The notes beneath the pieces are model-generated. The model saw only the letters and a list, made by a program, of their open reading frames with translations, ran no database searches and was not told where the DNA came from. This document shows positions 18,943 to 60,937 of a stretch of 64,000 nucleotides of DNA, piece by piece. This DNA is from Sphaerodactylus townsendi. Taxonomy: Eukaryota. The stretch is taken from the NCBI RefSeq assembly GCF_021028975.2, contig NC_059427.1:119908001-119972000 (forward strand), given 5' to 3'. The position numbers and the translations under genes are program-made. Numbering within the stretch: position 1 is the first letter of the stretch; every line of letters starts with the position of its first letter.

Positions 18943-19151
18943 GTATTGTCGAAGGCTTTCACGGCCAGATTCAACTGGTTGTTGTGGGTTTTCTGGGCTG
19001 TGTGGCTGTGGTCTGGTGGATCTTGTTCCTAACTGGACACAGTGTGTGACAGACTTCCCTCTGTGATACACCTCTGAAGATGCCAGCCACAGATGCAGGC
19101 TAAACGTTAGGAACAAGATCTACCAGATCATAGCCACACAGCCCAGAAAAC
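18943..19151. mobile_element. Penelope-like element, fold-back (inverted) 3' fragment A
   Basis: Terminus GTATTGTCGAAGGCTTTCAC, inverted arms and 13-bp TSD CCAAAGCAACATA. Hammerhead at 19071-19111 with GAAA mutated to TAAA. Confidence 0.8.
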
Positions 19152-19548
19152 CCAAAGCAACATAAGTTTGTAAGACTGAAAATGCCCATTGCTCCCCCAG
19201 CCTGCATCACCCAGACTTCCTTGGAGTAGCACAATACCTTCAGTCAGTCAAACACAGAGGTGAATGGTTCTAACTGGCAAAATTACTTACACAAAATGAA
19301 TTAACCCAGTATGTTAACTGTGGATGCAAAGAGAGAAAATTATTTGTCAAAAAAAGATTTTGAATTCAGTATTCTGTAAAACTTCCATAGGCAGGAACTT
19401 ATTCTACACATAGGACTAATTCTACATAAACATCCAATGTGATATAAATTATCTTAATACAAATGTAGAACCAGCAAGGACCTGTAAGGGCATCTAATTT
19501 TTCCCCTCCACCATTTTTATTCTTTCCCTCAATGAAAGCCCCCATAGC

Positions 19549-19793
19549 TAAGGTGACCAGATTTTTACTCCTGTAACGCGGCCGCAGGAGCACACTGCCT
19601 TTTGCGGCGCTCCCCGGTCAGGAAACAGGGAAGCGCCCCAGAAGTGGCCAGCTTGACAGCATGGGGAGGCTTTTTCTGCTTGACCCGCAGGAGCGCATTG
19701 CCTAATCGGGACAATTTTAAAACCCGCGGGATGCAGGACACATTGCGGAAAAGCGTGAGTGTCCCTCCAAAAGCGGGACGGCTGGTCACCTTA
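19549..19793. mobile_element. hAT (Blackjack-like) MITE
   Basis: TIRs TAAGGTGACCAG and CTGGTCACCTTA. Perfect 8-bp TSD CCCATAGC. Confidence 0.88.
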
Positions 19794-20740
19794 CCCATAG
19801 CCTTTCTCCTTTTCCTGCTTCCTTCTCTTCTTCCCATCCACAAGGTCACCCATCTTTCTCAGCCCCCCTGTCTTTGGCTTTCCCTCCTTTTCTCCCCCTG
19901 GCAGCCTCCGCCTGGAAAAATGTTGGTTCAGTTGTGTGGTGCTAGCCTATTCTGTGGTGAAGTAACTGCAAAAACTTCTAGAGGGCACTTTACTTTCTCC
20001 TGTATCCACCTCCCCACACAACTTGCTTTCCCCCCTCTCCTGGCAATCCTAGGGTAGCCAGCCTCCAGGAGATGGTTGGGGAATCTCCTGCTATTACAAC
20101 TGATCTCCAGGCAACAGAGATTAGTTCATCTGGAAAAAATTATCTCAGTGGCATCATTCTCCATTGAAGTCCCTCCCAACCCCAAACCTCACACTCCTCA
20201 GCCTCCACTCCCAAAATCTCCAGATATTTCCCTATCTGGAGATGGCCAGGCTAGGCAACCTCCATAACTCACCTTTTCCTGTTTCCTCTTGCATTCCCAC
20301 CCACCTACCAACCAACCTGGCTTTTGTCTGTCCCCCATTTTTAGCTACATTTGTTCATTTACACCCCACCTTTCTTCACAGTGAGGACCCAAAGCATCTT
20401 ATATTCTTTTCCTCTCCTCCATTTAACCTCACAACAACCCTGTGAGGTAGCTTAAGTTGTGAATATGTAACTGGCCCAAGGTCATCCAGTGAGTCACAGT
20501 GGTGATTAGAACCTTTGTCTCCTCCTAGTACGAACCTCTAACTGCTACACAGTGCTAGCTTTTGTGGGGTGGCTGCTGTTAAACAATGGCAAGTAGCCAG
20601 TTCTGGCTGAGTCATGACAGTTGCATGGTATCAATGATGCTGGGCCTGGCCTCAATGTGTACTTCTTCAAAGACCAAAGCAGCACTAGAAAGGGCCCTGC
20701 CCTGACCCTGCCTTTAATTGACAGAAACCAAAGCTTGAAT

Positions 20741-20936
20741 GTATTGTCGAAGGCTTTCACGGCCAGAATCACTGAGGTGCTGTGTGGTTTCCAGGCTGTA
20801 TGACCGTGTTCTAGCAGCATTCTCTCCTGACGTTTCGCCTGCACCAGATGCTGTATGCCAGCCCCAGATGCAGGCAAACTGTCAGGAGAGAATGCTGCTA
20901 GAACACGGCCATATAGCCCAGAAACCACACAGCACC
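20741..20936. mobile_element. Penelope-like element, fold-back fragment B
   Basis: Same terminus, about 75-bp inverted arms, TSD CCAAA(G/A)CTTGAAT. No complete hammerhead core. Confidence 0.8.
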
Positions 20937-21132
20937 CCAAAACTTGAATGCTGCCAATATTGTTGTGATCATTTAGTAGTAATGACTACCAACCGCAGTT
21001 GTTTCTTAAAACAGCAGGCAGAGCTTCTGTTATTTTGGAAAGGTTTTTAAAACTTCTAAAATTAAGATTTCAGATTTTTCTACAAATGAGGTTTTCTTCA
21101 GGTTTGTAGAAAGATTGAAGTCTATAAAGTTG

Positions 21133-21569
21133 TGCATGGGGTAGAAAATGTTGACAGAGAGGAAATTTTCTCTCTTTCTCACAATACTAGAACCAGGGGG
21201 CATACATTGAAAATGCTGGGGGGAAGAATAAGGACTAATAAAAGGAAACACTTCTTCACGCAACGTGTAGTTGGTGTTTGGAATATGCTGGCACAGGAGG
21301 TGGTGATGGCCACTAACCTGGATAGCTTAAAAAGGGCTTAGACAGATTGATGGAGAAGTCGATCTATGGCTACCAATTTTGATCCTCTTTGATCTGAGAT
21401 TGCAAATGCCTTAGCAGACCAGGTGCTCAGGAGCAGCAGCAGCAGCAGGTCATTGCTTTCACATGCTGCATGTGAGCTCCCAAAGGCACCTGGTGGGCCA
21501 CTGCGAGTAGCAGAGTGCTGGACAAGATGGACTCTGGTCTGATCCAGCTGGCTTGTTCTTATGTTCTTA
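21133..21569 (+). mobile_element. CR1 LINE 3' end
   Basis: TRGHTLK...RKHFFTQRVVGVWNML ORF2 tail and terminal GTTCTTAT repeat. Confidence 0.88.
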
Positions 21570-21819
21570 AAGATCTGTCTTGTCTGTTCATGGCTCCAGA
21601 TTCTGAATTTAAATATCCACAGATTTGGTTACATTGAGAATTAGATATATTAATGATGATATTTATTAAAGGGCAGCTAAAATGATTTTCAAAACTTTTC
21701 CCTAGAAAACATTTAATCGTGATTCTTAAAGAATATTACAGAAGAGGTTGTTTTAATCTTTTGTCAAACTTCCAATTAGGGTTGCCAGCTCTGAATTGGG
21801 AAATTCCCATGTGACTGGT

Positions 21820-22054
21820 GAGAGCCATTCTGATGTAGTTGTTAAGAGTGGCAGATTCTAATCTGGAGACCCCCTCCTTCTCATAAAGCCCTCTGGGTTG
21901 CCTTGGGTCAGTCAAAATTCTCTGAGAATCCTCTCAGCCTCACCTACCTCACAAGGTGGCTGTTGTGGGTAGAGGAAGGGATTATGATTGCAAGTCATGT
22001 TGAGACTTCTTAAAGTGGAGAAAAGCAGGGTATAAAAACCAACTCTTCTTCTTC
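21820..22054 (+). mobile_element. Squam3-like tRNA-derived SINE
   Basis: A-box-like TGTAGTTGTTAAGAG, body shared with the other copies, (CTT)n tail. Confidence 0.75.
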
Positions 22055-23641
22055 TAGAGATTTGGGGGTGGATCCTGGGAGGGGAGGGTTTGTGAGGGGA
22101 GGGATCTCAGCAGGGTACAATGGTATGGTATGGTAGTTATGTTTAATTTATATACTGCCCTCCCCTGAAAGGCTCAGGACGGTGCACAATAGCATAATAA
22201 TCAAAACATCATGCTACAAACATCAAAAATATAATATCGATAAACAAGGATCAGAAAACATAACCTCATAATATCATAGCATCATAAACATAACATCATT
22301 GACATAACATCATAACATCAAAACATAACATCATAAATAACAATAAGCATAGAATCATAAAACAGAACATTAAGAATCCCTCTCCAAAGCAGCCCTTTTC
22401 TCCAGGGGAATAGATTTTTCTAGCATGGAGATCAGTTGAAGTTCTACTAGATCTCTGGCAACTCTGTTCCTAATATATTCCCCCATCCTTCCACCCTTCA
22501 AATTTACACAGAATTATTCTGTGGAATAATTTTGGAAAGGTAACATAGACAAGGCCAATGTCAGATTTAGAATCTCTCACTGTGGCATTTAACAGTGTCA
22601 ATAAATGATAGCTCCTCATAGTATTCTTCCACGCATAAAATAATGTCCTTATAATACAGACTGTTGAGGCAACCCCATTTCATGCAGTCCCATAGGAAAG
22701 CATCTGAACCTCACCTCCAATGAACACATGCAAAGACCATCATTTGAGAACACTGGCATAGTGAGGGAGGCACAAAGGGGCAACAGCCCTGTGTGCCATT
22801 TCCTGGGTGTGGCCTGATGCCCCCTCACAATTGCGCCACAGCCCTGTTTGGGGCTGGGTGCAGTTAAATGCCAGTCACCAGAGCTAGCCCCACTCCTAAA
22901 CACCATGTACAGCTTGGGAGAGAGCTTCAAACATCACATGGAGTTTCGAAATTCGGCCGGAACCGGCTAGAGCTGCAGCCACCACCCCTCAGGCACTTCG
23001 GAGCAACCCATTTGCTGCTGGCCTCAGCTTTCCAGGTCCAGATTTAAACTGCAGGCTGGCAACTGGAATCCTGCAGTTCAAAACTGACCCCAAGCCTCAC
23101 TAGAGCACAGGTGGCTGATCGGCTGTAGTTTTATTCTGTTGGCTCCACCCACAAACACACACCACCAGCTCCACCTGACTGGAGGTGGAGCTTGTGGGTG
23201 GAGCCAACAGCATAAAACCAGAGATAGTCAGCCTTTGTGGTCAGTTTGGCCCACTCTGAACTTCATTGAAGAACAGGGCGGAGTGACTGGTGCCACACTC
23301 GAACTCCACATGGAGTTTGAGGGTGGGCCAGTTAGGCTGGCCCCACTGGTCAGCTGCATGACAAAGGTGCAGCTGGGAGCAGGGAGAAGCAGTGCCCTGG
23401 GTGAGCCCCAGGGAATGCTTTAATAAGCTACACCCCTGCTTGAGAAGTACAAAATCAGAGGAAATTCTGGTCAATAGTTGAATTTTAGGAAGACAGCCGA
23501 GGAAGAGGGAGGCATCACTGATGGAAATTCTATCTATTAACAGAGGTTTATTGTGGTTCCAAACTCCTTTCATTGTTTTCTTATTAAATGGTAAATTGGA
23601 GAAATGCCATAATTGTTCTATGAGTAGCCAATAATATTTAC

Positions 23642-23666
23642 GGAGGAGGAGGAGGAGGAGGAGGAG
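23642..23666. repeat. (GGA)n microsatellite
   Basis: About 8 direct GGA units. Confidence 0.9.
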
Positions 23667-23782
23667 TTATAATCCAGCTGGGCTTGGTTTACCTGCTACA
23701 GTATAAGAGCACAACTATTCATCTGGCCTTGTCCTCAAGCAAATTATTTTTATTTTCCTCCACTTGTTTTCTCTTGTCCTAG

Positions 23783-23885
23783 ATCTTCAGGCACCAATGA
23801 CCTGGCTGTGCTTATCTCCCGCATGCAAAGAAATGCAGACCAAGTGGAAAAGGATGTTCTTGAAACACAAAACAAGCTCAAACAG
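23783..23885 (+). CDS. EVPL: Envoplakin exon 2 (SSGTNDLAVLISRMQRNADQVEKDVLETQNKLKQ)
   Basis: Acceptor tag|, donor CAG|gtaaat. Matches ELALLISRMQANADQVERDILETQ. Confidence 0.95.
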
Positions 23886-24724
23886 GTAAATTTGGGAAAT
23901 CAATAGTACCTGTACCATAAGCAAGGACGTAGGTGGGGGGGGGGGTTATCAGGTTCAACCCCCCCATTACATGTCCGAAGCTCTGTCCCTGTTTGTGGTT
24001 TTTTCTAGTGTTTTTTCAGTTTTTGGCCTGCAGGGGGTGCATTTTTTAGGCAAGCAGCACCTCTCTGATCTGCTATGCTGTTTCAGGAGAAGTTCAAGAT
24101 TTCTAGACTGATCTTGGGCATGATGAATAGTATTGAAAACTTAGTACAGTAGAATTAGCTGGATCAGATCAAACATGCACCTACTCCAGTGTTTTCTGTC
24201 TTCAGTGGTGATCAGCTCAAGTACATCTGAGGTGCTTTATCTGTTGTCCTTCCTCAGCATCTGATACTGAGGGTCAAACTACACATTCAGGTTTTTAATG
24301 AGTTGTGTCTGGGTTCTTCATAGCCACATAGTAGCTCTGGGGAATGACTGTTTAACTATAAGGGAGAGCCCAAATGGGAAATGCTGCTGCTTGGAGGAGA
24401 GGGGTTGCTCCTGCCATCCATAGAGCAGCAACAACGTGTTGTTTCCGTCCTGGGGAATTGCTTTGGGGAAAGGCGGGAGCATTTCTCCCCCTGGCCCCTG
24501 GCATTTCTCCCCGCCCCCCCGCCCCCGGCAACCCTGAGCTTGTTTGGGTTCTTTATTTTTGAAAGTAACATAATAGTCATCAATGTATTCTATGAAAACC
24601 CTGCTTGGACTTATGAAAATGCAGGGACAGAGAACCTCACAAAAACATAATAGTGGCCTTCTTTATTTGTATGTTCACGCTGCAGTATCTAATGGGAGTG
24701 GTTCTCATGCCTCTACTTTTCTGA

Positions 24725-24886
<162 letters not shown>

Positions 24887-25001
24887 TGAGTAGTGGACCA
24901 ATCGCAATTGTAACCCATCTGCTGTATCAAATCTTGGCTAAAATGAAATATCAAGTAAGTGCATGGAAGCACTTTTAGGCAGCTGCCAAAAACAGGTAGT
25001 G

Positions 25002-25187
25002 CAGTGGTTCTCAACCTTCCTAATGCCGCAACCCTTTAATACAGTTCCTCATGTTGTGGTGACCCCCAACCCTAACATTTATCCATTTTACAGATGGAGA
25101 ACACTGATGCAGAGAGTCTTAGGCGACCCCTCTGAAAGGGTCGTTCGACCCCCAAAGGTGTCCCGACTCCCAGGTTGAGAACCACTG
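25002..25187. mobile_element. SPIN (URR1-like) hAT MITE
   Basis: TIRs CAGTGGTTCTCAACCT and AGGTTGAGAACCACTG. Both arms closely resemble rodent URR1/SPIN MITEs as recalled. TSD AGGTAG(T/C)G. Confidence 0.88.
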
Positions 25188-25680
25188 AGGTAGCGTGTAT
25201 TCTTACACCAGCGGAGACAGCATGTCATTTCAGCAAGAGAGAGAAGCAGAGGCAACTCTGCCGTCCTGTTTCTCCCCAAGCCCTTTTATTGACAGTTTAC
25301 AAGAGGAAAAACAAACAAGGCAGGCAGGGGTTTGCAGCACCGGGATACAAGACAATGAACAGGGCAAAGGGCGCAGGGGGATTTGGGCAGGGGATTTGGC
25401 AATTGCACATACACATTGGAGCCAGGAGGTCTTGCAATCTCAGCGGTTTCTCCGAATCCACATTTTGGAAGGAGAGGTCAGTCGCATGAACGGCGCATGG
25501 TCCCGGTGTGTCGGGAAGTGTGGGAGACCCTTTTCCGGGGGTGTGCCCGCCGTACTCGGGCGTCTCCCGGGCGCTCGTGCTCTCCAACAGTAGTGGGTTC
25601 CACTCCTCCTTCAAAAGCTTCAGCATCCTCAGAGGTTTTGATCTAGTCCCCCTTAAAAAATTTTCTTCTTTTTTACAAAG

Positions 25681-25804
25681 CATCAAGCAGCTCCATGATC
25701 GAGTGACATACCAATGTGCGGAATACCGAGATCTCTATGAGAAGTTTACAGTTCCTGAAGCTGGATCCAAAGTGGATTGGGCAAAAATTCTAGAACAAAA
25801 ACAG
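25681..25804 (+). CDS. EVPL: Envoplakin exon 4
   Basis: IKQLHDRVTYQCAEYRDLYEK...VDWAKILEQKQ. aag| acceptor, |gtaaac donor. Confidence 0.95.
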
Positions 25805-26222
25805 GTAAACAGAAGCTAACTGAACACATTGCTTTATTTGAGTGGGTATATTTACAAGTGAAGTCAAACACTGGTGCTAGTAAGAAGAACGAAGGTTATA
25901 TATGGCCTAATTTCATGAAATGGGTGATGTGAGTCAGGTCAGGTTTTCCCCTGGGCCCCATCCTTCTGCGCCCACACCATCCCTAGAATGGGGGACTCCA
26001 CTCACTCCGAAAGCCACACTGCTAGGAGAACCTTGCCAATTCTACTCTGGAGCATGGTCCAATGGGAGGAGGGACTTCAGCATTCCATCCTGTGTTCTTT
26101 TCACCAATAAAAATGGCTGTGGGAAGTTCTGTTTGCACCCCAACTCACATCACCCATCTCATGGTTAGACCCTATGATTTAAAGAGCTCTTCTGAGTGAG
26201 ATGATGTGCATGCGCATGCATT

Positions 26223-26508
26223 GAAGAAGAAGAAGAGTTTGGATTTATATCCCCCCCTTTCTCTCCTGTAAGGAGACTCAAAGGGGCTTACAATCTCCTT
26301 TCCATCCCACCCACCAACAAACACCCTGTGAGGTGGATGGGGCTGAGAAAGCTCCAAAGAACTGTGACTATCCCAAGGTCACCCAGCTGGTATGTGTTGG
26401 AGTGCACAAGCTAATCTAGTTCACCAGATAAGCCTCCACAGCTCAAGTGGCAGCCAGTTCTCCAGATTAGAATGCACCTGCTCTTAACCACTACACCACA
26501 CTGGCTCT
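26223..26508 (-). mobile_element. Squam3-like SINE
   Basis: Head GTGGTGTAGTGGTTAAGAG and (CTT)n tail on the - strand. Confidence 0.8.
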
Positions 26509-27757
26509 CTGGGACATTGGAACTTTGACCCTGTGAACAATGTCCATGATCCAGCACCATGGTCTTCTGAAGATCCATCAAGATTTGAAAATGGCTTCTG
26601 GGCAATGAAAGAGGCAGCTTCTGGAAGGAGGAAGCTGGGGGACTTATGAAGGGGCTACCATGAGGAACTCTGGACTGGGGCCAGAGATATTTTCATATGG
26701 AAAACGAACTTATGCAACTCTTCAAATGTTTCATCATATGCATCGATAAGATCTATGTCACAGAACTGCCTGTGGACAATATCGTCCTCAGTGACACAAC
26801 ATTTTCCATTTATTTGCCTGTTACCTAAGATTATAAAGGTCTGCTTCATCATGGGCAAACATCTGTGTGGATTTCATATTCTGACATGTTCAACTGGCCT
26901 TTTTTGTTTGTCTGTTGAAATTGTTTCTCACACTTCCACTTAAAATAAATGTTCAAAAAGGCCTGCAAACTTTAAAAATAACACACTATCGAACAATAAC
27001 ATAACATATATATTAAAACAAAACCCAGAAGTCAGCAGTTCAGCTGCTGGTGTGTGAAAGATGTAAATGAACACCAGGCAAATATTCCAGAGGGAAGTGT
27101 TCCACAGACACAGTACCATAGCGAAAAAGATTCTGGTGAGTTCACAACTATGTTATCTGCATACACTTTTAGGTTTACGCACTTTGCAACTGGATGGCAA
27201 TGCTGTCAATCACACTTTTATCATCACATGAGGGAATCATGACAGATAAGCTCATATTTGCAGTATGAAATTGCCTGGTTTCTCTTCACAGGCTTGAGAG
27301 AGATTTTAACAGTGCAAGTAGGTTAAAGGAACTTTATTTTACTTTACATTTTCTTTACTTTATTTTGGGCTTATATCCCGCCCTATCCCAGCCAAGGCTG
27401 GGCTCAAGGCGGTTGAATAAACCTGAAGTAATCCTCTCAGATGCATAATACAGAAGAGCTGGAACCTGCAGAACTACTAAAGAGCGAAGTCGACAAACAT
27501 TCCTTTTGACTTATACCTGAGGAAAAGGAGGAGTCCATGTGCTTGCAGCCAAGAACACAGGAATGTCCTATTACTCCTCTCTGTTGGGGAAATATTGATG
27601 GAGCGTCTTTCTCATCTAACCCAATATGAATGTGGGTACTATATTTTAGATTTGAGAAAAAACTTGAGATGTATCTATCAGGAATTTTTGAAAAAATATA
27701 AAGATAAAGCTCACTGTTTAGATATTTATCAACGACAGCTAGGATACTTTCGGCTAA

Positions 27758-28033
27758 ATGACATAGTGGCTAAGAGCAGGTGCACTCTGATCTGGAGGAA
27801 CCGGATTTGATTCCCACTCTGCTGCTTGAGTTGTGGAGGCTTATCTGGGGAATTCAGATTAGTCTATGCACTCCCACACACGCCAGCTGGGTGACCTTGG
27901 GCTAGTCACAGCTTCTTGGAGCTCTCTCAGCCCCACCCACCTCACAGGGTGCTTGTTGTGAGTGGGGAAGGGGAAGGAGATTGTTAGCCCCTTTGAGTCT
28001 CCTACAGGAGAGAAAGGGGAGATATAAATCCAA

Positions 28034-28073
<40 letters not shown>

Positions 28074-28131
28074 TTCATCATCATCATCTTCATCATCTTC
28101 TTCTTCATCTTCTTCATCTTCTTCATCTTCA
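27758..28131 (+). mobile_element. Squam3-like SINE with expanded compound microsatellite tail (CTA)n(CAT/CTT)n
   Basis: Body matches the other copies. Tail at 28035-28131. Confidence 0.8.
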
Positions 28132-28149
28132 TATTGGAGCATCGAGAAA

Positions 28150-32968: not shown

Positions 32969-33502
32969 GGCCCTTTCTGTACAGCGCTGGAAACGCAGCT
33001 CCACTGGCATAAATTATGCCGGTGGAGGCTCGGGGACTGCTTGCAAGGCACCGTGCGAGCAGCCCCACAGATCCGCCACACCAGAGAGGCAACTCCACAC
33101 AGAGCCACCTCCGGTCTGTCACCTCCACTAACCTGCCTGTCCAGCATCACGCTGGAGGGCTGCAGGGACCCGCCCATGCTGCCCTCCGACCTCCAGGGGT
33201 TGGAGGGCAGCGTGTGCAGGTCTCTGCAGCCCTCCAGAGCGGCGCTGGACAGGCAGGTCAGTGGAGGCGATGGGAAAAGCGGCAGCATCCCACCGGTGCG
33301 GTTCACACTGCGCTGGCGGGAAGACGCCACTTTTTAAAAACCTTGTTCGATGAGCAACATTTAAAGTGACGGCTTCACGCCGCTCCAGGGTGGCCAGGAC
33401 GGCGCTGCTGCAAACCAGCAGCGCCTCCTGTGCGAACGCTTCCCCAGGGACGGCGTTTTTGCCGCCCTTGGGGCGCTGTATTCCGCCCGTGCGGAAAGGG
33501 CC
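32969..33502. mobile_element. PIF/Harbinger MITE with long internal palindrome
   Basis: TIRs GGCCCTTTC and GAAAGGGCC, TTA TSD, internal inverted repeat at about 33122-33268. Confidence 0.85.
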
Positions 33503-48329: not shown

Positions 48330-48566
48330 GTGAGCACTGTGATTTCTTCAGAACAGGCAAGGGAAGAAAGGCTCCTGCTATACTTCTCACCTGCAGGACT
48401 TAATAAAATGAACAGATGAAAATATGCAGAGAACAAAGACTAAGGCTGAGTAGGATATGAAACAAAATGGAATAGAAATCAGCTCTGCAAGTGTAACTGC
48501 CTTGGGATGAGTTCTTTATTCATTGACTGCAATCTCAAGTCATTCATTCATGTGTGAAACCGCTGT

Positions 48567-48867
48567 AGAAGAAGAAGAGTTTGGATTTATATCCCCTCCT
48601 TTCTCTCCTGCAGGAGACTCAAAGGGGCTTACAATCTCCTTGCCCTTCCCCCCTCATAACAAACACCCTGTGAGGTGGGTGGGGCTGAGAGAGCTCCAAG
48701 AAGCTGTGACTAGCCCAAGGTCACCCAGCTGGCATGTGTGGGAGTGCACAGGCTAATCTGAATTCCCCAGATAAGCCTCCACAGCTCAGGCAGCAGACCT
48801 GGGAATCAAACCCGGTTCCTCCAGATTAGATACACGAGCTCTTAACCTCCTACGCCACTGCTGCTCC
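48567..48867 (-). mobile_element. Squam3-like SINE
   Basis: Near full length with (CTT)n tail. Confidence 0.8.
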
Positions 48868-50368: not shown

Positions 50369-50461
50369 GAAAATGAGGTGACAAGGTGCTACATGGAGGC
50401 AGCTGCTGAAAACAAACAACAGATCAACCGGCTGGAATTTGCCAAGAAAGTTATGGACAAG
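50369..50461 (+). CDS. EVPL: Envoplakin exon 21
   Basis: ENEVTRCYMEAAAENKQQINRLEFAKKVMDK. tag| and |gtactt. Confidence 0.93.
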
Positions 50462-50659
50462 GTACTTGTGAATCTTGTTTATTATTTATATACTTGCCTT
50501 TCTCTTAGGAATGCTGGGACCCAAAGTGGGTAATAATAATACAAAAATAATACAAACAATTTAATAAAACAGAACATTAAAAAGTCACACTAAACACATA
50601 AAGCAAAACAACTTAAGCACCAACTATCAGGGTATTGTTCCCCTCCCCCAGCCCAGACT

Positions 50660-50953
50660 TAAGAACATAAGAACAAGCCAGCTGGATCAGACCAGAGTCC
50701 ATCTAGTCCAGCTGTCTCCTACTCGCAGTGGCCCACCAGGTGCCTTTCGGATCTCACATGCTGGATGTGAAAGCAATGGCCTTCTGCGGCTGTTGCTCCT
50801 GAGCACCTAGTCTGTTAAGGCATTTGCAATCTTGGATCAAGGAGGATCAAGATTGGTAGCCATAGATTGACTTCTCCACAAATCGGTTCAAGCCCTTTTT
50901 AAAGCTATCCAGGTTAGTGGCCATCACCACCTCCTTGGTGGCCATCACCACCT
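50660..50953 (-). mobile_element. CR1 LINE 3' end
   Basis: Reverse complement of the 3' part of the 21133-21569 copy. Confidence 0.85.
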
Positions 50954-51859
50954 TCTTTTGGACTTAGGATGTCCAAAAAGCTATCTGGAACAGCTGTTTA
51001 CAGCCTTGCTGGGAAGCCAGAAAAATAGGATTTCCCCTGACCTCTTCTGGGAGGCTGTTGCTGCCTGAGAATGGTATCACCCCCTCTCAGAGCCCTTTGA
51101 CCCAATAATCACACAACACTCGTGGCTGGGGAAAATTACTTGGCCATAGCCAATCGCTTATTGTGCAGTAAGAAGCATAAGGTGAAGCATGGGACTCTAA
51201 TCTGATTTTTAACACTGGTAGCCCCTCCTCAGGGGTGCCTCCAGGGCAAGCTGCTCTTCCCGCTGCCCTGCTGGCTGACAGATGCCCATGCCGCTACTGT
51301 GGAGCTCCAGCGGGTGGGTGGCCTCTTACTGCAGCTCTGTTGCAATGCTCGGCTGGGCGGTCGGCTTCTTGCCATAGCATTCCATCCCACTATTACCCAT
51401 CTAGCTTTGCATTTGCACCCATTCTGTACACTTTTTCTGTCTCCTTGGTAAATCTGATTTGGCGGTTCCTGAGACCAAGATTACACTTATTTTTCCCCCA
51501 AGTAGATAGTGCTTTTCTGACAAGGTCACAGAGCTGAAATGTTTGTGAGGCATGAGATGTTTTTGTAATATCCACAGCATAATTGACAGTTTGCATCTTC
51601 ATAGCTGTAAAACTTACTGAGCTCACAGTCTTTAGAAACATATCAGTAAATGGCTTAGATAGAGTTTCTCCTACTGCCATATCATTCGAGATATGATTTC
51701 AGCAAACTTTTTGGATGTTCTTCTATGCCATTTGTAAGTGTCACAATGATGACAGTATCAATACATTTTTTTAAGTATTCAAAAAATTTCAAACATTATC
51801 CCAGTATATCTTCAATGGCTGTGTAAGAGAGACCAGTATTGTTATCCACTCACAAGATC

Positions 51860-52375
51860 GCCTCTCCTAATATACTCCCCAGAGGGCACTGCGCTGTGCA
51901 AATAACAATTTGTTGGGGGTTCCTGGCCCAAAAAGTGACCAGCTGTCTTCAACTAGAGCCAGGGCATTTTTGGCCCTGGCCCCAGCCTGGTGGAATGCTC
52001 TATCTAATGAGACCAGGACCCTGTGGGACTTGCCACAGTTCCGCAGGGCCTGCAAGATAGAGCTATTCCACCAAGCCTATAGTTGAGGACAGCTGCAGTA
52101 CTGTCATTGTCCATCTTATCCAACTTCTCTTTCCTCTTCCCTTTCCACTCTTCCCTTTTCTCTCCTTCTCCTCCTCTTTGTATTATTTAAAAATGACGAG
52201 ATTTCTATCCCACCCTGATATGCTATCTATATAGTTTTAGAAGTTTAAAAAAATTCTAGACCATTAGATTTTAAATGTTTTATTATTATTGAGACTGTGT
52301 TAATATATGGATTGTTAGCTGCTCTGAGTCAACTTGACGGGGAGAGCTGGGATATAAATTGAATGAATGAATAAA
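51860..52375 (+). mobile_element. L2-like LINE 3' fragment
   Basis: Homologous to 18066-18558. Ends in (TGAA)n. Confidence 0.7.
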
Positions 52376-52520
52376 AGCAATAAATGTAGGGAGCTGGGGC
52401 AGTAGCTTATATAAAAACAAACTCATAACTGAAAATGAGTAATTCCCAGCTTCTTCTCTTTATTGCTGAATTACTACATTGCTGCTACATATGCAAATAG
52501 CTAATTGTACAAAACACTGG

Positions 52521-52816
52521 GAAAGAGCCTTGTAGCACAGAGTGGTAAGCTGCAGTGCTGAAGTGAAAGCTCTGCTCATGACCTGAGTTCAGTCCCGGCG
52601 GAAGTCAGTGGCAGGAAGCCAGCTCAGGGTTGACTCAGCCTTCCATTCTTCTGAGGTCAATAAAATGAGTTCCCAGCTTGCTGGGGGTGAAGGGTAGACA
52701 ACTGGGGAAGGCAATGGCAAACCACCCTGTAAACATAGTCTGCTAAGTAAATGTTGCGATGTGATGTCACAACATACCACTAATGACCCACTGTTTGCAC
52801 AGGGGATTACCTTTAC
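52521..52816 (+). mobile_element. Sauria SINE
   Basis: tRNA-like head, GTTGACTCAGCCTTCCAT core, GGGGAAGGCAATGGCAAACCACC Bov-B-related part and ACCTTTAC tail. Confidence 0.85.
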
Positions 52817-52907
52817 AAAACATTCGCACTGTGATAATTTTCATGGCATGCTGTACGATTTCCCCCCCTTCCCTTTCTGAAATTGCTTATGACCTTTCCT
52901 TTTACAG

Positions 52908-55900
52908 AAAGAAGTAAATGAGACAGCGCAGGTGACGCATGAACGAGCCCAGCAGTCTGAGAACGCAGCCAGGTCACTGAAAGAATCAGACACCCTTAAA
53001 TCTCAGCTGGAAGAGGAAAGGAGCAAGAAAGCCAGGGCTCAGCAGGAGCTCGAAGAACAGAGGAACAAACTTCTGACACTGAAGACCCAGCGGCCCATTG
53101 AAAGAGTAGAGGAGAAGGAGGTGATGGAGTATTATAGAGATCCCACTCTGGAGAGCAACCTGTCTAAACTATCTCAGCAAATTGAGGAGGAGAATAAGAA
53201 GAGAAAGTGCCTACAGGCAGAAATTGAGATGATGAACCATAAAGTCCTTCAAACAGAGAAAGATAGGAAGGTTGTGAAAGCCCAGTTACTTACTAAAGAG
53301 GTTACTAAGATAGAGAAAGATCCAAGCCTAGATGCTCAAGCAACTCATCTTAGAGAAGAAATCAGGTCTCTCAGAGAGAATTCAACTTCCTCCTCTGACC
53401 TCGAGCAACTCAGAAAAGAACTAAACTTCCTGGAGCAAAAACAGCCAAACATTCGAGAGAAAGTGGTGATAAAGGAGATGGTCAAGCTGGAGAAGGACCC
53501 AGAGATGCTAAAATCAATCAGGACATTGCAGATGCAAATTGATGAAGACAGTTTCAAGAGAAAGTCTGTGGAAGATACAATAGGAAAGCTGAAAAGCAGA
53601 ATTGAAGAGCTCGAAAAGCTGATTGAAACAGCTGAACCTAAAGTTATTGTAAAGGAGGTGAAGCAAGTGGAACAAGATCCAGAGCTTCTGAAGGAGTGTT
53701 CCAAGCTTCACACTCTAATTGAAGAGGAGAGGAACAAGACCTTGGAACTAGCAAAAGAACTGACGGACCTTCAGAACAGGTATAGCACTGTGGAGAAGCA
53801 AAAGCCGAAAGTGGAGGTTAAAGAAAGAATAAATGAGATCTTCCGGCTTGACCCAGAAACAGAAGAGGAGATTGCACGTCTGAAAAGGGAACTTCAAGAA
53901 GTTACCAGAAAAAGGAAGAGGGTTGACCAAGAGGTGGACACATTCTTATCTGAGCTCAATGTTCTCAGGTCTCAGAAACCCACAGTGGAGTTTAAAGAGG
54001 TCATCCAAGAGGTGGTGAAGATGGAAAAGAGCCCTGAGGTTCTGAGAGAAATAGACAGACTGAAACAACAACTGAATGATCTTGTGAATGCCAATGGAAG
54101 GTTCCAGGAACAGTTGATCAGGATTCAGGGAGAACGGGATGAGTGGAAGAGGGAAAAATCGAAGGTTGAAACCAAGCTAGTTACTAAGGAGGTTGTAATA
54201 TACGAGAACGACCCTCTGTTAGAGAAGGAAGCTGAACGTCTCCGCCAGGAAGTACGTGGTGCATCACAAAAGAGAAGAGCAACTGAAGATGCCATTTATG
54301 ACCTACAGAATAAGTACATACTCTTGGAAAGGAGAAAACCTGAGGAAAAAGTTGTGGTCCAAGAGGTAGTAGTTATGCAGAAAGATCCAAAGCTGCGAGA
54401 TGAGCATAGCAGGCTGAGTAGGAGCCTGGATGATGAAGTGAGCAATCGCCGACGCCTGGAACGCGAAGTCCAGCAGATTCGGGCAGTAGTGGAAGAGGAG
54501 GAAAAGTTGCTTAACTTCCAAGAAGACAGAACCAAAAGGCTTGCTTTGGAAAAGGAAATGCGGCAGATCACCTTGAGAATAAAGGAAATTGAGGAAAGTC
54601 CTACCCCGGTTCAAGAGAAAATAATCATGCAGGAAATGGTCAAATTAGAGAAAGATCCAGTTCTTGAGCAGTCTACTACTAACCTACGAATAGATTTGGA
54701 TAATGAGAAGGCTCAAGTGTTGAACCTACAGAGGGAGTGCAAGAATCTAGAATCCCAGATTGAGGCTCTACAAAAAACAAAGTCCCAGGAAAAAACCATC
54801 TACAAGGAAGTAATCAGAGTAGAAAAAGATAAAGTATTAGAAAACGAACGAGCCCGTCTTTGGGATCTGTTGAGTAGGGAGAGAACTGCTCGACAAAACG
54901 CTGAAGAAGATATCAGGCGTCTCAAGGAGAAAATTGAGAGAGCAGAAGGCATGATGAGGACATGGTCCAGAGAAGAAATGGAGCTCCAGAAAACACAAAA
55001 TGTGATTATGCAAGAAAAAGACGATATCGAGAATGAATTAATGGAACTGGAAAGGCAGAAGCAACAGAAAATCCTCTTCCTTAGAGAGCAGACTAAGCTT
55101 TTGAGCCAGAGGACAGAGAATGACAGGCAAAAAAAGATGCAACTTGGTCAAGAGCTTTCTCTCCTTGAATCAAATATACTCAGAGAGAAGGACCAGATTT
55201 ATGAAAAAGAAAGGACTATTCGTGAGCTCCAGTCCAAAGTCAACAGAGAAGAGCTGAACCAAGAGACCAGGATGAGGGAGACCAATCTTTCAACAAAGAT
55301 CTCTATTCTGGATCCAGATACTGGCAAGGACGTATCACCCTATGAGGCCTACAAGAGAGGTATGATAGACAGGAGCCAATATATTCATCTGCAAGAACTC
55401 GAGTGTGATTGGGAGGAAATCACAACCCTAGGGCCCAAAGGAGATATGTCTGTCCTCCTTGACAAGAAGAGTGGAAAGCAGTACTCGATTGATGATGCCT
55501 TACGATTTAGAAGGATTACAAAGGAAGAATTCCAGCTCTACAGGGAAGGCAAGTTACCTATCTCTGAGTTTGCTCTGCTGGTAGCAGGAGAAACAAAGCA
55601 GACTGCACCCCTGTCTATTGGCTCAATAATCTCGAAGTCTCCAGCTACATCTCCCAGTTTCCAACAAAAACAGGACTTCTTTCCTCATGCACAAATACCC
55701 TTCTGTGATGACACTTTTCCCATTGCTGGAGTGTATGACTCAACCACTGACAAAAAGTACAACATCAAATCTGCTCTTAACAAGAAGCTGGTGGACCCAA
55801 TGACAGCTCAAAAGCTCCTAGAAGCACAGGCAGCTACCGGAGGCATTGTTGATCTTATGTCTCGAGATCGTTACTCTGTCCATAAAGCCATTGATAGAGG

Positions 55901-56351
55901 GCTGATTGACGACACTTACATGCAGAGGCTGCTGAATGCCCAGAAAGCGTTCACAGGGATTGAAGATCCAGTCACCAAAAGAAGACTGTCCATAGGAGAG
56001 GCAGTTCAGAAAGGGTGGATAACAGTGGACAGTGCCTTTCCATATATGCAGGTGCAGCATCTGACTGGAGGGCTAATAGATCCCAAGAAAACTGGTCGTA
56101 TCCCAGCGGCGGAAGCTGTCCAGATTGGCATGCTTAACAGTGATCTGGCCACGATGCTGAAAGATGAATCTAACTATGAAAAGGATCTGGTTGACCCTAT
56201 CCACAAAGAAAAAATTCATTACAAGGAAGCTATGGCTCGTTGTCGGAAAGATCCTCTAAGCGGGCTCCTCCTCCTGCCAGCTGCCTCTGATGGTTACCAA
56301 TCGTATCAGTCAGCAAATCGTTCACCCAATTTGCCCCGGTACAGGCGTTGA
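52908..56351 (+). CDS. EVPL: Envoplakin exon 22 (coiled-coil rod, linker and C-terminal plakin repeat domain)
   Basis: 3444-nt open frame after tttacag|. Contains KEVxKxEKDP rod repeats, linker ECDWEEIT, and PRD motifs QKLLEAQAATGGIVD and TGGLIDP...CRKDPLSGLLLLP. The PRD distinguishes envoplakin from periplakin. Confidence 0.98.
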   Translation, partial: KEVNETAQVTHERAQQSENAARSLKESDTLKSQLEEERSKKARAQQELEEQRNKLLTLKTQRPIERVEEKEVMEYYRDPTLESNLSKLSQQIEEENKKRKCLQAEIEMMNHKVLQTEKDRKVVKAQLLTKEVTKIEKDPSLDAQATHLREEIRSLRENSTSSSDLEQLRKELNFLEQKQPNIREKVVIKEMVKLEKDPEMLKSIRTLQMQIDEDSFKRKSVEDTIGKLKSRIEELEKLIETAEPKVIVKEVKQVEQDPELLKECSKLHTLIEEERNKTLELAKELTDLQNRYSTVEKQKPKVEVKERINEIFRLDPETEEEIARLKRELQEVTRKRKRVDQEVDTFLSELNVLRSQKPTVEFKEVIQEVVKMEKSPEVLREIDRLKQQLNDLVNANGRFQEQLIRIQGERDEWKREKSKVETKLVTKEVVIYENDPLLEKEAERLRQEVRGASQKRRATEDAIYDLQNKYILLERRKPEEKVVVQEVVVMQKDPKLRDEHSRLSRSLDDEVSNRRRLEREVQQIRAVVEEEEKLLNFQEDRTKRLALEKEMRQITLRIKEIEESPTPVQEKIIMQEMVKLEKDPVLEQSTTNLRIDLDNEKAQVLNLQRECKNLESQIEALQKTKSQEKTIYKEVIRVEKDKVLENERARLWDLLSRERTARQNAEEDIRRLKEKIERAEGMMRTWSREEMELQKTQNVIMQEKDDIENELMELERQKQQKILFLREQTKLLSQRTENDRQKKMQLGQELSLLESNILREKDQIYEKERTIRELQSKVNREELNQETRMRETNLSTKISILDPDTGKDVSPYEAYKRGMIDRSQYIHLQELECDWEEITTLGPKGDMSVLLDKKSGKQYSIDDALRFRRITKEEFQLYREGKLPISEFALLVAGETKQTAPLSIGSIISKSPATSPSFQQKQDFFPHAQIPFCDDTFPIAGVYDSTTDKKYNIKSALNKKLVDPMTAQKLLEAQAATGGIVDLMSRDRYSVHKAIDRGLIDDTYMQRLLNAQKAFTGIEDPVTKRRLSIGEAVQKGWITVDSAFPYMQVQHLTGGLIDPKKTGRIPAAEAVQIGMLNSDLATMLKDESNYEKDLVDPIHKEKIHYKEAMARCRKDPLSGLLLLPAASDGYQSYQSANRSPNLPRYRR

Positions 56352-56434
56352 GGCAAGCGCTGTACTCTTCAGTTTCCATATTCCCTCAGGTGCTTCAAAC
56401 CGTCAGCAGAGTCCATTGGCAAACAGTGTACCTG

Positions 56435-56454
56435 GTATTGTCGAAGGCTTTTAC
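56435..56454 (-). mobile_element. 20-bp ultra-truncated Penelope-like insertion in the EVPL 3' UTR
   Basis: GTATTGTCGAAGGCTTTTAC (19/20 match to the family terminus) flanked by CAGTGTAC(C/T)TG direct repeats. Confidence 0.75.
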
Positions 56455-56603
56455 CAGTGTACTTGGTACTTGTGGATGGGTGTAAGCTGTACTAGATAGC
56501 TAGTCCTGTTTCCTTATACCAAGGCAGCAAAGTATTTCAAGGAGAAGCTTGCTTTCCTGAAGGTAGAAGGGTTCTAATGCAGTATACTGTGGGACAGCAA
56601 TTG

Positions 56604-56685
56604 AATAAATAAGCTTGGGGGGATTTTTAGCTATGTCTTTGTATCAAGATGCTTTGAGTTAAATTGTTGCCATGCATGCAATAAA
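56604..56685 (+). terminator. Candidate EVPL polyadenylation signals (AATAAA at 56604 and 56680)
   Basis: First canonical hexamers about 250 and 330 nt after the stop codon. Confidence 0.5.
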
Positions 56686-58185
56686 AAATTTAAAGATTTA
56701 AGACTCCATTAGTTATTTTTAAAACTGGGGACACTTCAAATCAGAATCCCAACTGTGATGAAAGGTGTGGAGGTAAGCTTATATTTGAACTGAACTCAAG
56801 AGCAATAGGGAAAGAGATTTTTTTAAGAACACCAATAGTGAGAGAGGTTACATGGAAACTCCTAAGCGAAAGCTGCATGCAACCCCAGACAGGACAATAG
56901 GCTTTAGAATGTCAGCTTCTGTGTAGAAAGTACAGCACCCATATTTTCAAGCTTCAGGTAACAATGAGGGCTAGCAACTTGCTTTAGAATGACCACTAAA
57001 TGCAATAAGACCCAGATCTTCAAAATAAAAAAGGGGACAGAGTCACAAATATATATGCCAAGTGGTCCATCACTTGTCAAGAGGGTATTTTAAAAGAACA
57101 AGTATTTTTTTCAAAGCTCAAGGTTAACCCAGGCATGTTTTATTTTCTTTCGTGCATGAGGAAACTTCTATAATAACATTAACAATTAATGATTAAAAAT
57201 AACTTCAAACATTAACAGGAACTCTTAGACATGTAACTGTAGTTGGCCAAGAGCTGAAAATGGGAGTTTGTTGAATATTTATCCTTTGATGTTCCATACC
57301 ATATAACTCATTCAGCTTCTCTTCTTGGCATAATAATGAACAAATTTGACATTGTGATTGAACTAAAAATTAAAACTCTTAACATTATTTAAAAGGACAT
57401 TGCCCTCTCTACCATTAGGAACCCCATTTCTTAATATACATTGTTGTTTGTACCATTGAGAACATTAGCTCTATCTTGAGGGGAAATCTTCCCTAAGTGC
57501 GGAAGCAGTTTTAATGTACCACACAAGATATGATAATGACAGATGCTGAAAGAAAGTCAGGTTATTATATTACGTTTCTTGATGACTCAAGGAAATCGTG
57601 GTGATACCCCAACACATAGTACCCTGTTCACTGTACCTTCTACGGGCTGCATCAATATAGTCTACATTACTTTAACCAACTTTTCTGTGATTTATCTAAA
57701 CAGCTCACAAATGTGGTTGCTGAAGAAGAACACAGCCAAACTTCTGCTCCATTCTGGCTACTCAAACAGAAAGTAGTCTTAAGGCTAGCAGTGCAATTCT
57801 ATGATGAGTTATGCCAGACTAACCCAACTGACTTCAGTTGATTTTGACAGGAGTAACTCCATATGGGATTGCTCTTTGAGAATCACGTTGGTTCAGTCTT
57901 CTTCTCTAGGGCAATAACTGATAGCCTCAAGCTTGTGTGTCTCATTGAAAGAACATACAACAGCTATAAGAAGTTATGCAGTTTACAAGAGCCAAAATTT
58001 ATATTAACATAATATTAGTCCCACCAAAGATTGAAAGCATCTTAACCAGATTCCACTGTAGTCATTCTAACATCTTGTTTAATTATTAGGAAGGGTTTAC
58101 GCCAGAGGGCCCTTCCTGCAGAAGCCCAGTTTAAAACCGCTTCTTCTCCTGGGCTATATTTCTTTACCACTCTGTGGCTGGCATC

Positions 58186-58266
58186 TCATGGTGCCTGCCA
58201 GAAATACCGGTGAGTCAAAGCAGCTTTGGCTGAGATGCGCCTGTTGGGATCGTATAGTAGTAGTTG
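58186..58266 (-). CDS. CDK3: Cyclin-dependent kinase 3, last coding exon (QLLLYDPNRRISAKAALTHRYFWQAP*)
   Basis: Kinase subdomain XI of the CDK2/3 family. Acceptor ttacag|, TGA stop. Confidence 0.9.
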   Translation of the reverse strand, partial: QLLLYDPNRRISAKAALTHRYFWQAP

Positions 58267-58358
58267 CTGTAATAAAAAGGGAGAAAAAAATAACCCCTCC
58301 AAAGGCTTTAGCTCCAGCCATTCACACATGTATATACAAATAAACATTTTAAGCCACT

Positions 58359-58594
58359 GTATTGTCAAAGGCTTTCACGGCCGGAATCACTAGGGTGTTG
58401 TGGGTTTTCCGGGTTGTATGGCCGTGTTCCAGTAGCATTTTCTCCTGATGGGTTTTCCGGATTGTATGGTTGTGTTCCAGTAGCATTTTCTCCTGATCCT
58501 CTGAAGATGCCAGCCACAGATGCAGGTGAAACGTCAGGAGAAAATGCTACCGGGACATGGCCATACAACCCCAAAAACCCACAACACCCTAGTG
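58359..58594. mobile_element. Penelope-like element, fold-back fragment C with a duplicated left arm
   Basis: Same terminus, TSD ATTTTA(A/T)GCCACT. Hammerhead at 58497-58539 with stem II closed by G-U. Confidence 0.8.
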
Positions 58595-59857
58595 ATTTTA
58601 TGCCACTGTTTTTAGTTTTAAAAGATGGCTTCTATCCGTTAAAAAACAAAATTATTAATCAAAAGAATACTAATCAAACAACAGCAACATTTAAAAATAA
58701 TCACCATTAAAACAGCCAAAACATAAAGTCACTAGCATATTATAAAACTTGAGCAAAAGGGTCACGCAATTGGAGGGATAATAAAATCAAATACATAAAA
58801 TAATACACACTGAAAGCAGGACAATAGCCCCATAAGAAGCTCAATAGCAATACATTAAAAAGAAGCAAAAAAAGTTCATCAGGAAAGCTATGTAGAGTTA
58901 GATGATGAGGAAACTAGAAGCAGCAAAAGGCAGAACCAACCAGCAACAGCCTACAAAAATGCCTCGGAAAATAAAAAGGTTTTGCCTCATGGCTGAAACT
59001 CACTATGTGCAGTACCAGATAAGCAGCAGTACGAAAGATGTTCCGGAGAAGGCGCCACTACTTAAAAGTAACGACTTGCCTCACCTCAATAGATGGGGGC
59101 ACACAGAGCAGGGCATCGAAAGAACAATCTTAATTAATAGGTGGCTTCATATAGAATCAGGTGAATTTTTTGATAGCTCAATCTCCAGTGTCTCCTAGGG
59201 TTTAAAGGCTGGCTATGAAAACCAATTAGCACCAAGGATAGTTCTTTAAGTGTGGCAAGATGTGTTCTCTGTAATCTGGTGTTGCATTTTGAATCAAGTT
59301 ATGTTCCCAAACAGTCTTCAGGGGCAGCTAAACATAAGAGGATACTGGAATAATCGAATATAGATGTGATCAGCCAACAAAGATGATCTGCAGACATGGT
59401 TATAGGAGTACTCCCAAACTGCGAATTTGCTCCTTTACAGGAAACCTCATCCTGCCAAGGTTGATTCCTAACCCCTCTCACGTGCCAGTATAAATCATAA
59501 GAAAGCACCCTAAAATACTGAGTGACAATGCCAGTCTTCACTAACGTCAGAACAACACAATACTGTTATTTATGTCTCCTGAGAGGTCAAAGCTAGGAGG
59601 AACTGGAAAAGCAGGTTGAGGGAAATTATACATTTCATGTTGGAAGGCTTCAGTTTATCTTGTAGGCATGTTTACCTGGAAGTAAGTCCTATTGTGTTCA
59701 GCAAGATGTACTTCCAGATATGTATACATGAAACAGTCATTATCTAACCAGGTCATGATAAGCCACTATTTTAAAATCTCTTTTTTTCATTTATAACACA
59801 GCCTGATCTAGCTAACTGTTTCCCAATAAGAGCTTTTACATATGTAATATAGGAATA

Positions 59858-60150
59858 AGAGCTGCGCATTATGAGATGAGTGGTTAAGATTGCTTGCACT
59901 GCACCGCACTCCTGCGCAGATCAAGGAGTTCAAGCCCCCTGTGGGTCAGATATCCTGGCAGCTGCCTCATGGTCAACACAGCCATCCATCCATTTCTTGC
60001 TTGGTAAACGAGTACCTAGCTCATAGCTAGGGGGTAAAGAATAGCCGGGGAAAGCAATGGCAAACTACCCCACAAAAGAGGCTTGCCTATGAAATCACTG
60101 ATCTCAGTGGTACCCCAGGGTCGGACACAACTGAAGGGGAAACTTTACTT
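59858..60150 (+). mobile_element. Sauria-type SINE
   Basis: tRNA-like head, GGGGAAAGCAATGGCAAAC and Bov-B-like GTCGGACACAACTGAA tail. Confidence 0.7.
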
Positions 60151-60327
60151 TTTTCTGTATAGAATAATGCAGCTCTTCTAACATTGTGATTCAAGCCATA
60201 TCTCACTATCGGTCTTCCTCAAGTGTGGATCTCAGATTGGTTTGACTGTTGCAACTCTTAGTTTCATCATCCTTGTCACAAGGATAAACACAACAAAATC
60301 TAACTGTCCCACCAGCCGGCTACTCAC

Positions 60328-60531
60328 TGCCAGTAAGTCTCGTCCATCTCGGTCCAAGTTGGAGATTACTGCCTTCAAATCTTTCCTTGGCCATTTGGGG
60401 AAATTTCCTTTGTAGTCAGGAAGCTGAGTCACTCCTGGCCACACGGATTCAGTAGGTGTGCCAAGAGTCCGGAAAATTCGAAAGAGCTGGTCAATTTCGG
60501 AATCCCCAGGAAACAAGGCTCTTCTGGTCAC
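60328..60531 (-). CDS. CDK3: Cyclin-dependent kinase 3, penultimate coding exon (204 nt)
   Basis: [26 protein letters not shown]...[10 protein letters not shown]...[15 protein letters not shown] and GRDLL are CDK3-type, not CDK2-type (GVTSMPDYKP, GRSLL). Adjacent to EVPL as in human. tag| and |gtgagt. Upstream exons were not found in the window. Confidence 0.93.
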
Positions 60532-60646
60532 CTAGAACAAGAAAAGAGCTGGTCCAGGTATCTTTCCAGTACTATGGTTAGAAAAGGCTGTCTAGCCATA
60601 AAATCTTCAAAACAAGAACACTATGGACAATATTCTAAGTAATGTT

Positions 60647-60937
60647 GATAAGCCCCACCCGCAATACAATACTATCAACCACATCTTTGCATAACAAGTT
60701 CCATCCAAACACTTACTGATTGGTTCCCCACCCTGGGACATAGACAATATACACCCCAAACATTCCCTTCTCTCTGAACACAGTGTGTAACAGACTTCCC
60801 TCTGTGATACACCTCTGAAGATGCCAGCCACAGATGCAGGCGAAACGTTAGGAACAAGATCCACCAGACCACAGCCACACAGCCCGGAAAACCCACCACA
60901 ACTAGTTGAATACAGCCGTGAAAGCCTTCGACAATAC
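60647..60937 (+). mobile_element. Penelope-like element 3' end, copy D (291 bp, not inverted)
   Basis: Ends GTGAAAGCCTTCGACAATAC. Perfect 15-bp TSD ATTCTAAGTAATGTT (60632-60646, 60938-60952). Confidence 0.85.
60812..60852 (+). ncRNA. Minimal type I hammerhead ribozyme (PLE-type)
   Basis: CCU / CUGAAGA / U / GCCAGC-CACAGAU-GCAGGC / GAAA-CG-U / U^ / AGG. The catalytic core is intact, with stems I and II and a palindromic minimal stem III (ACGU). Confidence 0.8.

Follow-up and report, generated by a model that had tools for sequence, protein, structure and literature searches.

The 64,000-nucleotide stretch of the Sphaerodactylus townsendi genome analyzed here (the window; contig NC_059427.1, positions 119,908,001 to 119,972,000) contains five short insertions with a common terminus, some of which are fold-backs, in which the 3′ end of an element is joined head to head to an inverted copy of itself. 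Judging from their sequence, these inserts are truncated copies of two subfamilies (A and B) of an autonomous Penelope/Poseidon element, and each fold-back was probably made anew, both strands of a staggered cut having primed on the same RNA to give 5′-truncated copies. The breakpoints are far from random but lie mostly away from the predicted cut of the hammerhead ribozyme carried by the element. The elements are ordinary Poseidon copies with an inverted-arm architecture that has already been published, and the mechanistic value of the finding is modest.

Positions within the element are given as negative numbers, counted back from the last base of its 3′ end (−1). The shared 17-nt terminus is the reverse complement of this 3′ end. 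Longer copies continue upstream into coding sequence for GIY-YIG (PF01541) and reverse transcriptase (RT; PF00078) domains and end in the same terminus; these domains, an intact open reading frame (ORF), and a match of the 3′ end to Poseidon of Anolis carolinensis are the grounds for the assignment. The intact ORF (L329) encodes 819 amino acids of subfamily B, starts with an ATG within the hammerhead, and matched RVT_1 with E = 1e-12. The GIY-YIG match was found in A copies, and the C-terminus of the L329 product aligns with that region; on its own, this C-terminus stayed below the Pfam threshold for GIY-YIG (E ≤ 0.01). At the junction of the A pseudo-long terminal repeat (pLTR) with the ORF (L198), the ATG lies at −117 inside the ribozyme, and in L198/L238, as in L329, the ORF starts within the hammerhead motif and reads through the terminus. 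Between A and B, the proteins share 75% identity. In B, the final 88 nt are identical to the published Anolis Poseidon stem-loop at 74 of 88 positions, counted by eye from the figure text. An extra Zn-finger-like linker is described as a mark of Neptune/Nematis in the accessible literature; in the protein, inspected by eye and without a tree, no cysteine cluster was seen between thumb and GIY-YIG. A PDB search with the RT piece gave two weak RT matches, which were uninformative. All the features of Penelope/Poseidon membership that were tested were thus found, namely an ORF with RT and GIY-YIG, a pLTR with the ORF start and a minimal hammerhead, an inverted copy with a tail, and no extra linker. 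The preliminary description had recognized Penelope-like insertions with a minimal hammerhead and inverted arms in the pLTR and had called for an autonomous RT/GIY-YIG partner; both expectations were borne out. Exact matches in the 1.81-Gb genome numbered 10,834 for a 22-nt terminus and 23,078 for an inner 21-mer.

Two observations concern the longer copies. On both sides of the intact B copy L329 (G000:C3 near 109–112 kb), about 230 bp of non-element sequence occur as a direct repeat (1540–1790 and 4400–4650), and the copy has no complete 3′ pLTR. In subfamily A, a broken ORF of about 2.4 kb, 91–98% alike between copies, lies about 300 nt behind a common 5′ end, TC-TATATATA, at L241, L242, L245, L248, L249, L251, L254, L255, L256, and L246, and a CTAG end is found just upstream of it in L241 and L246. 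We take these ends to resemble Helitron ends, and the unit looks like a candidate Helitron that captured and amplified a Penelope ORF.

To obtain counts, 237 elements were mapped in 175 sequences (1.08 Mb in total), taken mostly from the first 10 Mb of contig 1 via exact motifs, together with the window and 200 kb sampled at even steps. These evenly spaced 200 kb held only 4 termini, and the sample was therefore drawn from motif hit lists. Among the mapped elements, 83 combined a tailed arm with an inverted tail-less arm, 4 had two tailed arms, 3 had two tail-less arms, 87 had a single arm, and 60 were unclassified or read-through.

The arms have two fixed outer ends 33 nt apart, one at −1 (ragged to +9) and the other at −31 to −35; the latter was seen in 103 of 134 tail-less arms. 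Fold-backs nearly always pair one end of each kind, as the class counts given above indicate, and this was also the case in a subset blind to the tail (71 elements at loci selected by an inner motif irrespective of the tail), in which the three fold-back classes stood at 25:1:1 (P = 3e-6 against 50%). Independent choice of the start site does not yield such a ratio. Target site duplications (TSDs) were detected in 60 of 77 fold-backs, compared with 1 of 77 in mispaired flanks, and 48 of the 60 were 12–15 bp long. The published Penelope pattern consists of an inverted 5′-truncated copy lacking the tail and a one-sided tail of 30–40 bp, according to the accessible parts of PMC8557442 and PMC3846280. 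For Anolis Poseidon (PAc), the accessible text of Frangieh et al. 2024 (PMC11167929) describes two adjacent internal start sites in vitro, with both target strands cut and extended; the outer ends at −1 and about −33 match these two sites. Separately, a tail-only insert of about 28 nt with a 12-bp TSD was found inside a tandemly repeated unit and has been multiplied with it (L059 and L060, G000:C1 4.788–4.790 Mb).

Inner breakpoints were analyzed in 285 arms of elements that had 85% or more identity to a reference, with expected values taken from flanking rates. In subfamily B, 88 of 214 arms end at −135 to −124 (3.7 expected), and in subfamily A, 22 of 71 end at −165 to −152 (1.8 expected). 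Neither subfamily has a peak at the site of the other, with 4 B ends in the A range and 1 A end in the B range. The hammerhead core is at −123, and the predicted cut is between −89 and −88, which places the dominant stop 41 nt (B) or about 67–76 nt (A) upstream of the cut. Because the stop shifts by subfamily while the ribozyme coordinates are identical, the main stop is not set by the ribozyme cut.

Solo copies and short re-copied pieces end at the same stop, and the only two copies found with the whole ORF and the 5′ end, L329 and L330, begin at −127 and −134, respectively; the stop thus behaves as if the template physically ended there on its 5′ side. About 30–36 nt upstream of this stop is a TATATA box, and Anolis Poseidon, in its published sequence, has a TATA-like run at a similar place. 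Among ends at −131 to −133, a B variant that has the box another 5 nt upstream is overrepresented, at 12:1 versus 12:20 in tail-less arms (P = 0.0009) and 10:3 versus 14:17 in tail arms (P = 0.10), the latter not being independent of the former. These results suggest that the main stop is likely the 5′ end of the mRNA, that is, a transcription start behind the pLTR TATA box.

The two arms of an insert also resemble each other more than arms paired at random. In subfamily B, they share 33 of 176 non-CpG variant sites, whereas shuffled pairing gave a mean of 5.4 and a maximum of 19. Such an excess points to one template, and both arms were likely copied from one RNA. No A/B chimera was found in 71 two-segment inserts. 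The junctions were of 64 types in 67 fold-backs, the recurring ones being overlaps at the GATC palindrome of the stop site, and perfect fold-backs had no common arm-specific variants (13 scored of 17, several with one damaged arm that adds noise). With junctions nearly all different and no arm-specific variants shared, each fold-back was likely made anew. In the perfect fold-backs L285, L286, L290, L293, and L294, small indels often crowd one arm while the other is clean; this is probably long-read error at hairpins and a caution for assemblies.

In the mechanism we propose, the element protein would cut both target strands 12–15 nt apart. One strand would start copying at the distal site, with the tail, and the other at the proximal site, without it, and both would copy toward the 5′ end of the RNA, 100–130 nt (B) or 125–160 nt (A) away, using sites at the start of the ORF. 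Most complementary DNAs (cDNAs) would end where the RNA does, at a 5′ end that is likely the transcription start downstream of the TATA box; others would stop early, and roughly 1–5% would stop at the ribozyme-cut end. The two cDNA ends would then be joined head to head via short palindromes or filler DNA. In the twin priming of LINE-1, a second nick primes a second cDNA and produces a 5′ inversion inside the TSD; the second primer lands upstream, and the arms do not overlap. Here, in contrast, both strands would start within 33 nt of each other and copy the same stretch.

Several points weigh against this mechanism. One contig, in its first 10 Mb, supplied most of the sample, and selection via exact motifs biases it toward young copies. 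Variant sharing is weak in subfamily A (9 of 71; shuffled mean 3.9, maximum 9), and variants shared by the arms could result from later gene conversion. In the accessible account of the PAc experiments, both strands used the start sites alike in vitro (PMC11167929), which does not directly support the pairing of one end of each kind. As for the transcription start, three raw RNA runs (fragmented RNA-seq from a related organism) and one contig set showed genomic read-through with no piles of starts or ends, and the modal first bases (G after A) form no classic pyrimidine-purine initiator. In D. virilis, the Penelope promoter has no TATA box, and transcription starts well upstream of the ribozyme. 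A YAG acceptor-like motif and short palindromes are found at both stop sites. In addition, a predicted hairpin begins with the modal A stop (−155), and the B stop lies 2 nt before helix I, positions that also fit trimming of the RNA to a protected fold. It is because of the atypical initiator, the hairpin coincidence, the difference from D. virilis, and the pile-free reads that we speak of the transcription start as inferred.

Trimming would leave the twin priming itself unchanged: a 5′-to-3′ exonuclease would degrade longer transcripts up to the ribozyme domain bound by the protein, together with the hairpin in subfamily A, and the folded RNA would set the template's 5′ end. Besides the position of the stops at helix I and at the hairpin adjoining it, the assistance that the protein gives to ribozyme folding in vitro, as described in the accessible part of PMC11167929, speaks for this alternative. 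However, of the 22 A ends at the hotspot, 13 (−157 to −165) are upstream of the hairpin, and B variants identical from −133 down differ in their stop in step with the spacing of the TATA box. We regard trimming as an unlikely source of the stop.

A single cDNA or antisense template could instead have snapped back at a palindrome and copied itself, as proposed for rotifer Penelope (PMC3846280). Such self-priming accounts for variants common to both arms, and the overlaps in the commonest joints do fall on palindromes (GATC, with 17 perfect pairs in the first 100 entries listed). The arm lengths argue otherwise. Among 53 inserts, the tail-less arm was longer in 24, the tail arm was longer in 14, and the two were within 5 nt of each other in 15 (rho = 0.22, P = 0.11). 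Since either arm can be longer, neither was simply copied from the other: a tail-less arm that reaches further is not copyable from the tail arm, and the tail is not copyable from the tail-less arm. Many joints, moreover, have filler DNA and no palindrome, and solo copies stop at the same base. Self-priming may be the source of some symmetric joints, but the two-way asymmetry in length makes it unlikely as the sole route, and we consider it improbable as the general explanation.

The preliminary description had suggested that self-cleavage or the fold of the ribozyme sets the switch point and that the units are retrozyme-like and non-autonomous. An excess of ends at the cut exists. Locally, 14 B arms end there (4.6 expected) and 7 A arms (2.5 expected). 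Genome-wide, counting B arms with two non-matching bases immediately upstream of the tested position, 224 end at the cut (−88), compared with 105 and 124 at the control positions −81 and −101, respectively, and 5,791 at −129. With the 22,883 copies of the −88 20-mer as the denominator, ends at the cut make up about 1% of arms and are 26 times fewer than those at −129. Of 25 cut-site joints inspected, 22 were true junctions and 3 were not, and 4 were explicable by AGG microhomology with the other arm. Since the control counts include internal deletions and some cut joints fit microhomology or are not junctions, the excess is about two-fold and concerns roughly 1–5% of arms. Five fold-backs fetched on purpose, L297–L301, have both arms ending exactly at the predicted cut and are the best candidates for copies of self-cleaved RNA, and the excess itself is a hint of hammerhead cleavage in vivo. 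As the main route, however, the ribozyme cut is refuted by the difference in stop between subfamilies with the same ribozyme coordinates, and it is left as a minor route at most; cleavage was also not required for insertion in vitro, according to the accessible text of PMC11167929. The claim of breakpoints near the ribozyme therefore holds for their non-random position, the small excess at the cut, and two of the six inner ends in the window, and fails for the dominant stop. The retrozyme-like family was likewise not supported, as no tandem units were found in the sample and neither the junctions nor the arm-specific variants point to a fixed unit amplified from a master copy. We consider a switch point set by the ribozyme very improbable. 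Least probable of all is a 3′ splice site as the stop, with spliced or splice-site-processed RNAs as templates: both modal stops fall on the G of a CAG that follows a pyrimidine tract and, in D. virilis, the intron ends at the 5′ end of helix I, but none of 115 junctions had upstream element sequence as a first exon, no common exon was found, and AG is absent at the corresponding place in the published Anolis Poseidon sequence. The AT frequently preceding the B stop was also considered as a first exon and rejected, the upstream sequences being diverse.

The accessible literature still calls the formation of inverted Penelope structures undefined, and an open-access literature search found no paper stating stop-site, pairing, or one-RNA rules. 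Our counts provide three rules that can be tested in the existing in vitro system: each insertion has one end with and one end without the tail, a single RNA serves both arms, and copying stops at the RNA 5′ end, not at the cut. We lean, with reserve, toward the broader view that thousands of such stubs record Penelope integration, in which one ribonucleoprotein would employ the two internal start sites of a single RNA, each for a different target strand, and both cDNAs would extend until they run out of template at the 5′ end of the mRNA, as retroviral strong-stop products do. If this is true, the position of the element's transcription start can be read from the joints to single-base precision, and minimal-hammerhead cleavage in vivo has left its first genomic trace in the small excess of ends at the cut.

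The following comparisons with known systems rest on the accessible parts of the papers cited. In PAc (PMC11167929), as here, the ORF starts in stem II of the hammerhead, the cut is about 26–28 nt after the ATG, the distal end lies 117 nt into the ORF, and the tail lies between the two start sites. The species and the subfamilies are different, subfamily A having an extra 5′ hairpin, and the accessible text gives no account of the formation of inverted arms, of arm stops, or of the pairing of one end of each kind. Canonical endonuclease-containing (EN+) Penelope insertions (Craig et al. 2021, PMC8557442; Arkhipova et al. 2013, PMC3846280) have a tail-less inverted pLTR, palindromes at the joint, and TSDs as well; here, however, most copies are only 100–300 nt long, the TSDs are 12–15 bp instead of the 8–10 bp of the rotifer examples, and the data fit two primed strands better than the self-priming put forward in 2013 (PMC3846280). 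The minimal hammerheads described from Penelope-like elements (Cervera and de la Pena 2014, PMC4209133) share with ours an extra base after A9, palindromic positions 15.2–16.2, and a short helix I; also in common are motif pairs 100–700 bp apart on opposite strands and the link of most motifs to truncated elements. Metazoan non-LTR (long terminal repeat) retrozymes (PMC7229834; bioRxiv 10.64898/2026.07.22.740005) are also short, non-coding, hammerhead-bearing, and related to Penelope pLTRs, and they form head-to-tail tandem units with at least two hammerheads and circular RNA. The present stubs, in contrast, are single head-to-head units with TSDs and variable length. None of the five window copies is a head-to-tail tandem of units with two or more complete hammerheads, and the sampled elements were solo or head to head; in the absence of such units and of a master copy, the inserts are not retrozymes.

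In the window, the 17-nt terminus has exactly 5 matches (0.02 expected by chance), at 18943, 20741, 56435, and 58359 on the + strand and at 60921–60937 on the − strand. All five copies, numbered 1 to 5 in this order, have TSDs, of 13, 14, 14, 15, and 15 bp, respectively, with one mismatch each in copies 2, 3, and 4, and the TSD overlaps the element end by 1–3 nt in copies 1–4. These results agree with the five insertions of common terminus, the 11–15 bp TSDs, and the microhomology between element end and target that had been described. The fold-back architecture was found in copies 1, 2, and 4 only (3 of 5). Copies 1 and 5 belong to subfamily A and copies 2 and 4 to subfamily B; copy 3 is too short to assign. 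Two of the six inner arm ends, at −91 and −90, lie within 3 nt of the predicted cut, and the others are at −103, −117, −129, and −164.

Copy 1 (18943–19154) consists of a tail arm at 18943–19033 on the − strand (−1 to −91) and a tail-less arm at 19033–19154 on the + strand (−164 to −43), between TSD copies at 18930–18942 and 19152–19164. In copy 2 (20741–20939), the tail arm at 20741–20843 on the − strand (−1 to −103) is separated by 11 nt of filler from the tail-less arm at 20855–20939 on the + strand (−117 to −33); its TSD copies are at 20728–20741 and 20937–20950. Copy 3 (56435–56454, − strand) is only about 20 nt of the 3′ tail of the element, with TSD copies at 56424–56437 and 56455–56468, the last 3 nt of the left one also being the element end. 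Copy 4, a B variant (58359–58597), has a tail arm at 58359–58448 on the − strand (−1 to −90), an additional repeated piece (−48 to −90), and a tail-less arm from 58495 on the + strand, which begins exactly at the −129 hotspot; the TSD copies are at 58346–58360 and 58595–58609. Copy 5 (60647–60937, + strand) is a 5′-truncated 3′ end of 291 nt with the tail and without inversion, between exact TSD copies at 60632–60646 and 60938–60952.

Further features of the pLTR were located in copy 5, all on the + strand. A TATA-like box at 60747–60753, with an inferred promoter function, lies about 35 nt before the A stop site and reads TATATA in most A copies. The 5′ hairpin of subfamily A is at 60783–60812 (−155 to −126; predicted −11.4 kcal/mol), its first base being the commonest A arm end. 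The minimal hammerhead at 60812–60852 comprises the 5′ strand of helix I, the CUGAAGA core, helix II, GAAA, and the ACGU palindrome; the predicted cut is between 60849 and 60850, and the ORF start codon at 60821 is inside the motif. The 33-nt tail (60905–60937) reaches from the proximal end, at about −33, to the distal end, at −1, the tail being defined as in the accessible text of PMC11167929. Copy 4 has a minimal type I hammerhead motif at 58498–58538 (+ strand), corresponding to the motif given in the accessible text of PMC4209133. The CUGAAGA…GAAA core attributed to the repeat is complete only in copies 4 and 5; it is altered in the GAAA box of copy 1, copy 2 lacks CUGAAGA, and copy 3 has no ribozyme. 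The hammerhead model search that had been suggested gave no hammerhead match in an Rfam scan of the window at E ≤ 1, only weak microRNA-like matches to hairpins, and predicted folds of the hammerhead motif and the tail were no more stable than those of shuffled sequences (z-scores near 0).

Elsewhere in the window, short inverted repeats at 61899–62044 and 33119–33270 (63-nt and 73-nt arms, respectively) gave weak, sub-threshold matches to microRNA families and are probably remnants of small DNA transposons. Dispersed repeats were found at 21327–21570 and 50659–50902, and at 26222–26510, 27798–28050, 48564–48797, 62436–62599, and 63152–63550; several of them presumably belong to a family resembling short interspersed elements that is typical of scaled reptiles.

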